A DNA stretch of 63,493 bases, counting the filler, from Octopus bimaculoides (Eukaryota), in NCBI RefSeq assembly GCF_001194135.2. It is 7 parts of 5 records of this genome, joined end to end, with 100 filler letters (N's around TTAATTAATTAA, not from the genome) between each part and the next. Parts side by side here need not be neighbours in the genome. Positions count along the whole stretch, not along the records: positions 1 to 24,807 come from NC_068981.1; positions 24,908 to 38,063 come from NC_068981.1; positions 38,164 to 43,271 come from NC_068986.1; 4 more parts are not named here. One strand, given 5' to 3'. The translations under genes were made by a program, and so were the position numbers. Shown piece by piece: positions 1 through 42,962 of the stretch. Positions within the stretch are counted from its first letter, which is position 1. Each line of letters opens with the position of its first letter. The notes beneath the pieces are model-generated. The model worked only from the letters and a program-made list of their open reading frames with translations, had not been told where the DNA came from and made no database searches.

Positions 1-106
1 TATATATATATATATATCATGTATACGCGTATAAGCAAATAAATGCAAGAAGTGGCAAAAATAATATTCGAATACCGAGGAGAGTAATATGCTTATATTT
101 AAAATA

Positions 107-139
107 TTACTAAGCGTTTCACGTTACCGTTCATTGGAC
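107..139 (-). ncRNA. Degenerate minimal hammerhead-like motif
   Basis: Minus strand reads GT-CCAATGA-ACG-GTAA-CGT-GAAA-CGCTTAG-TA-A. Stem II ACG/CGT is intact; the core has decayed. Confidence 0.4.
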
Positions 140-154
140 GATTGTGAGGAGAAA

Positions 155-190
155 TGTGCGAGGAACGATAATGTGAAACTCCAAGTAACA
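155..190 (+). ncRNA. Degenerate minimal hammerhead-like motif
   Basis: TGT-GCGAGGA-ACG-ATAA-TGT-GAAA-CTCCAAG-TA-ACA. Stem I TGT/ACA; inverted partner of 107-139. Confidence 0.35.
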
Positions 191-713
191 ATTTATGAAG
201 ACTTTTCAGCTTTACTGAAGTATATATATTATGTGTATATGTGTGCGTGTGTGCGAGCGTGAGTGTATGTGTTGCGTGTGCGTCTGTGTCTATGCGTGTG
301 TGCTTGTGTGTGTGTGTGTGTTTGTGTGTGTGAGTGTGCGCGGCGTATTTATTAATTGATTAATCAGTTTAGTTATTAACGGCAATCTCTGGAGGAAGCG
401 GTTCTGCAACTTCTTACTGAAAAACCTGCACGGATAGTTTGTGCTTGCTCCCCCCATCGAATCGGCGTTGCCTGAATTGGTGCACGGTGTGCTACATGTC
501 GAATGTCAAAGTGACCACAGGTCTGCACTAGATGAAGTGTTATGCTGAAGAACAGAACGCGCAAAAGCCTTAGGAACACACACAAAGGCACAAAAGTCTT
601 AGACACAACAGAAAAAAGACTAAGCTTGAAATATGTCTAGAAATACCATATATATTGAGCATGCTTTTTCTCTACTTTTTCAATCAAAATGTATATGTGT
701 ACGTATACGTGTA

Positions 714-1476
714 TGAGGTCTGATTAATAAGTATCCGGACTGTTGCCATAGTAACGAAGCTAAAGCACGCAGAGTACAGTCACTTGGCACAGATTGACTT
801 TGCACCCTGCTGTGCCCGCACACTATGTTTTAACGTTCTAGTTCACTTCTGTTATTTGCAGCAGTGCTTGGAAGGAAAGTGTGTAGCGTGTGATCGTCGC
901 ATTAACCATGATAGAGAAAGTCGAGCAGAGAATCTGCATCGAATTTTACTGAGGGCTTGGTGATAGCTGCTCAGAGACCTACGCTAAGTTTTCAGAAAGT
1001 TTTCATCTTCCTCGACGCAATCACGGAGGTCTTGCGCAGCTGAAACCCGAGTATCTTTTTGGTCAACTGAAAGCAGTTTTAGCACAAACTTGGAGGACAC
1101 GCGTCTTATAACCAAATCTTCAGTGATAATGGACTCAACTGAACCGTAACTAATCTGCACATTTTCTGATAACTCACAGATGATGATTCGACGATTTACC
1201 CTCCCAGATGCCCGCACATCTGCGATGTTCTTCTGGTTATAGGTCTCCCAGAACGTTCAATATCGACATTGTTCGGCCATCTTGAAAACGTCTGAACAAC
1301 TTGTACACTCCTCTCCATACACTTTCTGCAACTTTGCATAGGCCTCTCAGCAGGTATTAAAACTTAGTGCGCATGCGCAGCAAAGTTTAAGGTCGATCTG
1401 TGCCAAGCAGCTTTCCTCTGTATGCTTTAGCTTCGTCACTATGGTAACAGTCCGGATACTTATTGATCAGACCACG
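714..1476. mobile_element. Rearranged non-autonomous mariner (both arms derive from the 5' end; about 105-bp inverted termini)
   Basis: Left TA|TGAGGTCTGATTAATAAGTATCCGGACTGTTGCCATAGT versus right ACTATGGTAACAGTCCGGATACTTATTGATCAGACCACG. Transposase N-terminus on + (908-1000, MIEKVEQRICIEFY*GLGDSCSETYAK) and a transposase HTH region on - (about 1350 to 984). Confidence 0.85.
984..1350 (-). pseudogene. Mariner transposase fragment (HTH/linker region)
   Basis: NRRIIICELSENVQISYGSVESIITEDLVIRRVSSKFVLKLLSVDQKDTRVSAAQDLRDCVEEDENFLKT matches the mariner region upstream of the first catalytic Asp. Confidence 0.85.
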
Positions 1477-41106: not shown

Positions 41107-41362
41107 AAGTAGAGTGTCTTGCTTAAGGAGAGACGAGTAGAGTAGTTTGTCTTGTTTAGGGAACACAACGCAATGGTAGTTATATTACACAACTAGGTAG
41201 GTTTGATTAGTAGAAAGTCTGGCTTAAGGAACACAACACAATAGCAGCTAACATTGAGGGATGCACCTAGGTAGACTGAGGCAGTTAGAGAGGCTTAGCA
41301 TCAGTCCTTATGTTGTGAGTTCAATTTCTGCCAAGGTCAACTTTGCCTTTCGTTCTCTTGGG
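41107..41362 (+). repeat. About 255-bp direct repeat, copy 1 (composite of SINE-derived pieces)
   Basis: Near-identical to 42963-43226. Confidence 0.9.
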
Positions 41363-41935
41363 TCAAGAATGACCAAGGGACAAAACAACAAATCTTTAAC
41401 AAAAATGGGAGCAAGTGTAAAAACAAAAAAATCAAACAAAACTTATTGAAGAAAATATATTTACAGTGCTTTATCTCTTCTCTCTTTGTAAAGTTTGTGG
41501 AATTCAATATCTCTCTGATCCATCACTGATCTGCTATAATCCCTGGACAAACTGTAGACAAGAGGAAAATGAAAAGAAATTATCAGTTTGAGCAAAGACC
41601 TGATTATGAGATTGAGAATGTTCACTCCACAACTACATGGGGGCTCTGAATCTGATTTCATTACACAGCACTTTGGGTAGTTGCAGGCTGACCAAAGATT
41701 TATCAGTAAAGTTTGGTAGATGGAAACTGTGTGGAAGTATGTTGGAGTGATGGTACCTGTTTTGGGGAGACAAGCTTAAGCTAGTGGCACCTGGGGCCCA
41801 GGTGACTCAGAAGTATTTGGGCCAAGTCACCAGTCTGTGCACAAAGACAAAATATAGTTCTATATTTAAGAGATGAGGAATTATATATACATTACTTACA
41901 TTTGACAGATATTTGTCCTTATCCTGTTTGTTGCT

Positions 41936-41981
41936 AACACAATGTTTCGGTTGATATACCCTCCAGCCTTCATCAAATGTC
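41936..41981 (-). ncRNA. Minimal hammerhead motif (decayed)
   Basis: GACAT-TTGATGA-A-GGCTG-GAGGGTATAT-CAACC-GAAA-CATT-GTGTT. Confidence 0.55.
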
Positions 41982-42277
41982 CTGGGGAAATTTCGAACCT
42001 GGGTTCTCATTCCTAAGGTATTTGTCACTGCCTGGAATCGAACTCGGAATCTTGGGGTTAGTAGCCCGCGCTCTTAACCACTATGCATATGGCGTAGTGG
42101 TTAAGATTGCGGGCTACTAACCCCAAGATTCTGAGTTCAATTCCAGGCAGTGATCTGAATAATAATAATAATAATAATAATAATAATAATAATAATAATA
42201 ATAATAATAATAATGATAATAACAACAACATTGAAAAATATCTTAGGAATGAGAACCCAGGTTCAAAATTTCCCCAA

Positions 42278-42323
42278 GACACCTGATGAAGGCTGGAGGG
42301 TATATCACCTGAAATATTGTGTT
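42278..42323 (+). ncRNA. Minimal hammerhead motif (decayed)
   Basis: GACAC-CTGATGA-A-GGCTG-GAGGGTATAT-CACCT-GAAA-TATT-GTGTT. Stem I GACAC/GTGTT. Confidence 0.6.
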
Positions 42324-42962
42324 AACAACAAACAAGATGAGGACAAATATCTGTCAAATGTAAATAAAGACAAAATATATTTCTAGCCTTTTTAAAAGAG
42401 ATAATTACAGGATGATAATTAAAGAGATAATTAAGGGATGATACCTTTTATGAAAATGCAAGTTTGATGAGCCAATGAGAGCCTCTTCAACATGCTAGAA
42501 ATAACAGCCAAATCCATTTTAAATAGGACATAGCTAGTTTAGTCAGAGAATTCTCAGTCTTTCCTTCCTTCCTTCTGATACTAACACAGGCCCTGAACAA
42601 GCATTACAGAATTGAAATTAAAACACGAGATCTTGTGGAGATGGTGTGTTAGTCACTGGGTAACAGAAGTGTGATGAAACTCTATGGCGCTTTATAATAT
42701 TCAGGACTATTAAGAAATAAACCAATAATTACAGGATGTCCATGTGTTGTTGTTGTTGTTGTTGTTGTTGTTGTTGTTGTTTCAGATTCAGTACAACCTG
42801 TCAGCTCTGAGCAAACAAAAACAATTCTGAAAATAATATTTGCTTCTCTCAATTCAGTTCAATTCTTTGTGTTGATTCCATTCTGGAAAGAAATATTCTG
42901 GTTCAACACTGGTGAGGAGTTCTTGAAGATAGTACGATCTCTAGTCATAATGAGGTTGAGTA

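Follow-up and report, generated by a model that had tools for sequence, protein, structure and literature searches.

Insertions of Penelope-like elements (PLEs) are described, in the excerpts of the literature on which this comparison draws, as having inverted pseudo-long terminal repeats (pLTRs) placed head-to-head, a 31-bp tail, 8–10-bp target duplications, palindromes at their junctions and mobilisation in trans (PMC3846280, Arkhipova 2013), and an inverted, 5′-truncated copy combined with a tail is likewise reported (PMC8557442, Craig 2021; PMC8969392). Metazoan PLEs carry dual minimal hammerhead ribozymes (HHRs) in opposite strands, ~100–700 bp apart (PMC4209133, Cervera and de la Pena 2014), and the PLE protein PAc cleaves and extends both target strands, with two reverse transcriptase (RT) start sites delimiting the tail and no need for HHR cleavage in vitro (PMC11167929). 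We analysed a 63,493-nt stretch of Octopus bimaculoides DNA (the window; assembly GCF_001194135.2) that is rich in microsatellites and short interspersed elements (SINEs) and contains gaps (6,104 N letters), and in which a first-pass annotation had recognised four inverted-repeat elements, numbered here 1 to 4 along the window. Our analysis leads us to regard elements 2–4, with good confidence, as head-to-head retroposed 3′ ends of three unrelated PLE families, probably built anew at each insertion by a PLE enzyme, with element 4 likely to be a SINE moved by that enzyme; that the fold-back layout itself is known PLE anatomy we consider just as probable. The inverted arms, the one-sided tails of elements 3 and 4 and the variable junctions in other copies of the families were all observed directly.

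The resemblance to insertions of endonuclease-containing (EN+) PLEs (PMC3846280, PMC8557442) extends, as far as these excerpts go, to head-to-head arms of which one is more truncated, a one-armed tail of 30–40 bp, a short duplication, a junction palindrome and (TA)n targets. Unlike those insertions, element 3 carries an extension of ~135 bp, and element 4 has a tRNA-like head and no remnant of an open reading frame (ORF). The four elements show no mutual similarity, as had been claimed for them, the best cross-family score of 34 falling within the shuffle maxima of 24–36. Family-level evidence came from public sequencing runs aligned onto elements 3 and 4 only: DNA contigs from X2, X13 and X14, bearing three species labels, and RNA reads from X21 for element 3; DNA from X2 and X14 and RNA from X21 and X22 for element 4, where the stretch covered was 41790–42158.

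Element 4 is bracketed by an exact 13-bp target-site duplication on the plus strand (41843–41855, repeated at 42366–42378), the last 4 bases of the left copy overlapping the element end. Its left half reads on the minus strand and consists of a 30–40-bp tail present in the left copy only (41852–41891), at whose outer border 122 and 127 contigs end at 41851, a PLE-type 3′ part (41892–42023) with a minimal HHR at 41976–41941, and a tRNA-like head (42024–42086) from which an (AAT)n linker has been deleted at 42023/42024. The right half, on the plus strand, comprises a tRNA-like head (42087–42157) with an RNA polymerase III (Pol III) A box at 42090–42100 and a B box at 42135–42144, the (AAT)n linker (42158–42228; period 3, 21.7 copies), and a PLE-type 3′ part without a tail (42229–42367), whose minimal HHR at 42283–42318 has an intact core and is the top match of our descriptor scan. 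The outer arms (41892–42030 and 42229–42367) and the inner arms (inside 42025–42153) are ~90% identical and meet at a CATATG palindrome with no true spacer. The right copy ends at the equivalent of 41892, 30–40 bp short of the outer end, and 8 of the 16 pieces listed stop at 41884–41891 before running into other sequence, the window being locally divergent there. Depth, which is not equal to copy number and is also lowered by local divergence, was 1e6 inside the element versus 31 in the flank left of 41851. The window's copy was likely once a full dimer that lost its central hairpin between two CATATG repeats.

Element 3 lies between (TA)n tracts on both sides and has no hairpin at its centre. 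Its left arm (33271–33588, minus strand) holds an HHR-like motif at 33409–33362 with a CCGAUGA core and a long helix II, and its right copy (33589–33944, plus strand), which ends on (TA)n, holds one at 33804–33851; the arms 33271–33588 and 33616–33944 are identical at 286 of 330 positions and are separated by a 27-bp spacer. The left copy alone continues outward for ~135 bp (33136–33270, minus strand) in family sequence that borders (TA)n. This element belongs to a high-copy family in X2, X13 and X14, with an X2 depth of 3e4–8e4 over 33150–33270, and in each run 25–37 contigs end on (TA)n at 33271, as the right arm does, other copies of the family stopping on (TA)n at 33271/33276. Thus, the family has two outer ends, since it runs ~135 bp past the left arm in some copies and stops at 33271 in others. 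In the opposite direction, the X2 depth falls from 150,109 at 33839 to 3,721 at 33622 and 963 at 33594, which is a gradient of 5′ truncation. In each run, 18–20 family contigs covered the spacer, which shows a family letter at 33594 and therefore represents an extra 27 bp at the 5′ end of the longer, right copy. Head-to-head junctions made up 6 of the best 15 of 227 joints and 7 of the best 12 of 82, and all 13 differed from each other; of the other rows shown, five were mapping switches at mirror positions and four were deletions. No piece crossed 33588–33597 among the 24 listed of 11,655. An ATG located 114 bases inside the outer end, at first likened to the PAc start-site distance, was dropped, as its frame has stops.

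Element 2 retains coding sequence. Its left arm (6491–6818, minus strand; HHR-like motif at ~6614–6578) is the pLTR-like 3′ end of a longer, 5′-truncated PLE copy, and its right arm (7089–7437, plus strand; HHR-like motif at ~7317–7353) is a shorter, inverted and likewise 5′-truncated copy; the arms are identical at 291 of 352 positions, and the centre has no hairpin. The 270-bp spacer between them (6819–7091, minus strand) is a fragment of a PLE GIY-YIG endonuclease, as the first-pass annotation had proposed: its match to Pfam PF01541 (E=5e-4) was below the cut-off, and a hidden Markov model (HMM) of 23 RT-linked PLE endonucleases recognised it at E=5e-8, tblastn aligned it to P0031 at E=8e-5 with 41.5% identity, and it matched eukaryotic GIY-YIG clusters in Atlas at 0.94. 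A protein search with the fragment among longer proteins gave no match. The fragment continues straight into the left arm, and element 2 is therefore a single truncated PLE copy of 600 bp whose 5′ end adjoins a second, shorter copy in inverted orientation. No target duplication was found at this element. A tandem duplication of 23–24 bp (7135–7180) in the right arm is missing from the left one. Elsewhere in the window, a C-terminal fragment of a PLE reverse transcriptase (24474–24807, plus strand), at most 75% identical to RT+GIY-YIG proteins, is cut by a gap.

The family to which element 4 belongs has a unit composed of the tRNA-like head, the (AAT)n linker, the HHR part and the tail; it is non-coding, of fixed length and present in high copy, and in X2 the (TTA)n linker missing from the window's left copy was present at 42023/42024 in 247 and 240 contigs. 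The family's 5′ end is sharp, at 42083–42086; beyond a 7-bp hairpin, unrelated sequence follows in 473 contigs of X2 (agreement 0.48–0.55) and 505 of X14. That hairpin, with which the family starts (42083–42087), has a first arm complementary to the tRNA-like 5′ acceptor strand. The A and B boxes are 45 bp apart and form the sole A+B pair in the window by a strict pattern, with 0.015 expected per shuffle. We take the head to resemble tRNA-Arg; blastn of the head against phage records gave three matches, all three on annotated tRNA genes, with weak E values (0.04–2). The family may be transcribed by Pol III; the RNA reads are spread evenly over the two strands, with no pile-up of starts. On balance we lean towards a true SINE with a PLE partner, combining a tRNA-derived Pol III head with an HHR-bearing PLE end and ranking among the most abundant repeats of the genome.

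All eight arms of elements 1–4 contain an HHR-like motif, which reads on the minus strand in left arms and on the plus strand in right arms. The outward-facing pairs that had been claimed thus stand as regards orientation; taken singly, only the right motif of element 4 (descriptor score 7.7) exceeded 10 of 10 shuffles, the left one scoring 3.8, those of elements 1 and 3 ~0, and those of element 2 falling outside the top 45. A covariance-model scan, suggested as a check, gave no support: Rfam reported no hammerhead among the best 150 of 237 window-wide matches or in sub-scans of element 4, its matches being microsatellite and hairpin noise only, and none of the eight arm motifs formed an HHR in monomer minimum-energy folds. 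Majority letters of the families restored the motif in elements 3 and 4, so that a loss of the HHR stems from the family consensus, named beforehand as a finding that would refute the first-pass proposal, is not what was seen there. Family letters at 41976, 41977, 41951 and 41943 in element 4 yield CUGAUGA, a 5-bp helix II (GGCUG/CAGCC) and a palindromic AACGUU; those at 33411, 33375 and 33366 in the left arm of element 3 restore helix I, helix II and a CAGCUG palindrome, and those at 33803, 33808 and 33839 restore the motif of its right copy. Both arms of element 2 carry a U3-A8 core and a palindromic CAUG helix III, the U3-A8 variant being described for PLE HHRs (PMC4209133). Family letters for elements 3 and 4, and the two arms for element 2, thereby indicate a minimal HHR of type I close to the 3′ end. 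The motifs resemble the minimal type I HHRs of metazoan PLEs, as excerpted from the same source, in the extra base between A9 and 10.1, the palindromic helix III, the U3-A8 variant and the opposite-strand pairs; unlike them, the element-3 family appears to have C at core position 4, which was found in both arms and was changed in none of the family rows shown. Judged from the motifs, the HHRs may be active ribozymes. In whole-element folds, 34/37, 40/48 and 34/36 of the HHR bases paired with the opposite arm; a fold-back RNA would therefore mask its own ribozyme, and burial in a long duplex counts against a ribozyme-based life cycle of the whole unit. A further PLE-like 3′ end at 3890–4545 (minus strand), with an intact-core HHR motif at 3975–3948, has no inverted arm nearby, so such ends also occur singly; a lone, decayed HHR-like motif with a palindromic AACGUU lies at 21600–21630 (plus strand) and scores at background level.

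A plausible route to this layout would involve the PLE enzyme and twin priming. The GIY-YIG domain would nick both strands of an AT-rich target ~9–13 bp apart, matching the short duplication or (TA)n target at elements 4 and 3, and each free end would prime reverse transcription near the RNA 3′ end, one from an outer start site and the other from an inner one, which would confine the tail to a single arm. The cDNAs begun in this way would stop at different points and join at their growing ends, with both arms and their HHRs facing outward, and would so yield the observed single tail, short duplication and variable centres. Among the best 15 of 171 joints of element 4, 12 were head-to-head; their breakpoints in the inverted arm fell at 11 different places, and in 10 of these 12 the sense copy began at the head (42083–42087); the joints kept the outer part of the inverted arm and lost the inner part, at 11 different points. 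Depth at the centre letter 42084 compared with 42093 was 4,492 versus 452,577 in X2 and 27 versus 660 reads in X21, so that the centre reached ~1% in X2 and ~4% in the RNA runs of the depth nine bases away. Because the junctions are many and different and hardly any depth runs across the window centres, the palindromes appear mostly to be made anew and not copied as units, and because it is the outer part of the inverted arm that survives at the element-4 junctions, twin priming is favoured over hairpin self-priming.

Self-priming by a hairpin, in the cDNA or in an antisense template, could generate the inverted arm within the same PLE origin (Arkhipova 2013), and the published model rests, in the excerpt, on junction palindromes (PMC3846280), to which the 7-bp hairpin at the start of the element-4 family and the palindromic centre in the window would correspond. 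By this route the inverted arm should retain its inner part, whereas the element-4 joints lose it, and there is no hairpin at the centres of elements 2 and 3; we regard it as unlikely, and both routes may act. Less probable still is the proposal of the first-pass annotation that the palindromes are non-autonomous fold-back retroposons copied whole, even when restricted to a subfamily of element 4. It gains from element 4 having probably once been a full head-to-head dimer centred on a fixed hairpin, and from junctions from 41975, 41999 and 42023 to 42085 that recur in 3–4 runs, which may however be one locus in several animals. It is opposed by the variety of junctions in elements 3 and 4, the depth through their centres in the window, ~1% of that in neighbouring or outer parts, the unequal arm ends with a tail on one arm, and the masking of the HHR in fold-back RNA. 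The related idea of a series leading from a coding PLE to ribozyme palindromes had to be given up, as the families are unrelated and element 4 has a tRNA-like head. DNA-transposon origin, as miniature inverted-repeat transposable elements (MITEs) or fold-back transposons with HHR-like words by chance, would account for the long inverted arms and for most single HHR motifs failing to beat shuffles, and a 9–13-bp duplication also fits Mutator-type elements. The unequal ends and 5′-truncation gradient seen at elements 3 and 4, in place of MITE-type ends, the variable centres, the PLE endonuclease fragment and the family-level conservation of the HHR all contradict it, and the Tc1/mariner-type elements of the window have symmetric ends. 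This origin is largely refuted for elements 2–4 and in our view has hardly any probability left, whereas for all three the data support arms of PLE origin and the connection drawn early on with truncated copies that carry an inverted pLTR; the fold-back layout is a warning against labelling such palindromes MITEs.

The SINE reading of element 4 competes with a composite, namely a tRNA SINE dependent on a long interspersed element (LINE) that captured a PLE stub, or a PLE promoter end. The tRNA identity is weak by formal tests, no partner PLE was found, and the absence of a sense-strand TTTT terminator is not significant, since 685 and 927 of 2000 shuffles also lacked it. We nevertheless consider a composite rather improbable, because hundreds of contigs join head, linker and HHR part, which have similar depth; because the family starts sharply, none of the loose ends shown leading into a shared sequence upstream; because it finishes in a PLE-type tail and not in poly(A); and because copies form PLE-type inverted junctions. 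Several points weigh against the overall picture that we prefer, of PLE-built insertions with a SINE at element 4. ARAGORN and Rfam found no tRNA in the element-4 head. No autonomous PLE ending in an element-3 or element-4 arm was found in the window or in metagenome pattern scans, which included no whole genome, and those scans also gave no partner PLE sharing the element-4 3′ end; no RT or GIY-YIG ORF or fragment was contiguous with elements 3 or 4, and HMM searches gave no support to the notion, since rejected, that the element-3 spacer is an endonuclease C-terminus. The RNA runs showed no pile-up of RNA ends at the predicted cleavage sites of elements 3 and 4. A minority of perfect head-to-head dimers with a fixed centre does exist elsewhere in the element-4 family, as 285 X22 reads lead out of one head, across the hairpin and into another head; this also favours unit copying, by which these dimers may have spread. 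Counts of joints and pieces refer to the best-supported rows of longer tables, the joints resting on 1–6 contigs with a short side of 20–62 bases at 80% likeness and being error-prone, and perfect palindromes interrupt de Bruijn contigs, so that fold-backs copied as units are under-counted. An absence of RNA-end pile-up at cleavage sites is, according to the excerpt, reported for PAc too (PMC11167929).

Among described repeats, element 4 resembles in plan the schistosome SINE-like HHR elements SMalpha and Sjalpha, which are short and non-coding, with a type I HHR downstream of a promoter of Pol III type (PMC6765202, PMC8490949). Unlike the element-4 family, which is dispersed and has PLE-type ends, these are described as tandem arrays, and the excerpts mention neither a PLE tail nor inverted junctions, nor a partner among PLEs. 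Non-LTR retrozymes and the non-autonomous Chlamys and MRC1 elements (bioRxiv 10.64898/2026.07.22.740005, PMC7761336, PMC8557442) are also non-coding, have PLE-related 3′ ends and are proposed to be moved by PLEs, retrozymes being considered PLE derivatives in the first two of these sources, but they form head-to-tail tandem repeats. A non-LTR retrozyme was accordingly rejected as an identity for our elements, whose arms are inverted and single in the window. The words 'tRNA' and 'promoter' do not occur in the accessible part of bioRxiv 10.64898/2026.07.22.740005. Surveys of octopus repeats include PLEs and numerous SINEs left unclassified, with 'hammerhead' absent from the part of PMC13282606 available and no SINE–PLE link in that of PMC8967140; PMC10886601, on small-RNA-derived elements, does not mention Penelope, and PMC6685494 describes short non-autonomous Penelope elements with no tRNA head mentioned in the excerpt. 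No PLE-partnered tRNA SINE was found in the literature searched, a search that did not extend to Repbase or Dfam and leaves a prior description possible; the family may already be catalogued as a SINE with its PLE end unrecognised. Ohshima and Okada reportedly described, in 1994, the octopus tRNA-derived SINEs OK, OR1 and OR2, which by description, not by sequence, are like element 4 in their tRNA-derived head and high copy number.

If the SINE reading is true, a tRNA SINE mobilised by a PLE would extend the SINE-partner rule to a third retroelement class, and some of the large 'unclassified SINE' fraction in octopus repeat libraries may have to be re-assigned. Its fixed 5′ end would also make element-4 junctions a natural read-out of PLE twin priming and, together with the huge copy number, would allow twin priming and self-priming to be counted against each other in one genome.

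The RNA runs also differed from the DNA runs in the type of substitution. Places with A>G+T>C versus C>T+G>A numbered 44:39 and 55:39 in RNA compared with 17:27 and 13:27 in DNA at element 4, and 80:83 in RNA compared with 32:74, 35:74 and 48:76 in DNA at element 3; Fisher p values for the excess ranged from 0.002 to 0.14, with 3 of the 5 comparisons, which are not independent, below 0.01. At 41990, A>G was seen in ~22% of RNA reads versus 0.2% of DNA depth. The RNA excess over 41852–42158 and 33150–33940 possibly reflects A-to-I editing, which it fits, and alleles or subfamilies could mimic it. A-to-I editing is high in octopus and has been linked to palindromic repeats, in the excerpted source (PMC5625713), and the hairpins of these elements may add to it; head-to-head insertions of the element-4 family would, if the SINE reading holds, seed ready-made double-stranded RNA for such editing.

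Element 1 (100–195, no strand assigned) is a weak, decayed and unconfirmed inverted repeat, 100–132 against 163–195, with 26 of 33 positions identical in a 33-bp stem; an equally good local inverted repeat arose in 2 of 8 shuffled windows. Of the four inverted repeats claimed, elements 2–4 (arms 83–90% identical) hold and element 1 is marginal, and the proposed spacers proved correct for elements 2 and 3, whereas that of element 1 is 30 bp and not 4, and in place of the 16-bp spacer given for element 4 there is the CATATG palindrome. The HHR-like motifs of element 1 (137–111, minus strand; 158–187, plus strand) are degenerate and score below background, and neither a target duplication nor an RT or GIY-YIG ORF or fragment was found at it; it may go back to a very old insertion like those of elements 2–4, or to chance. 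A fifth palindrome at 53881–54170, without an HHR match, pairs two copies, apparently tail to tail, of the SINE-like repeat that is commonest in the window, and those at 43393–43566 and 1762–1850 are palindromes of AT-rich microsatellite mosaics. Symmetric terminal repeats of 117 and ~240 bp delimit 717–1473 and 11666–13276, which we take to be Tc1/mariner-like, the second keeping transposase-like frames.

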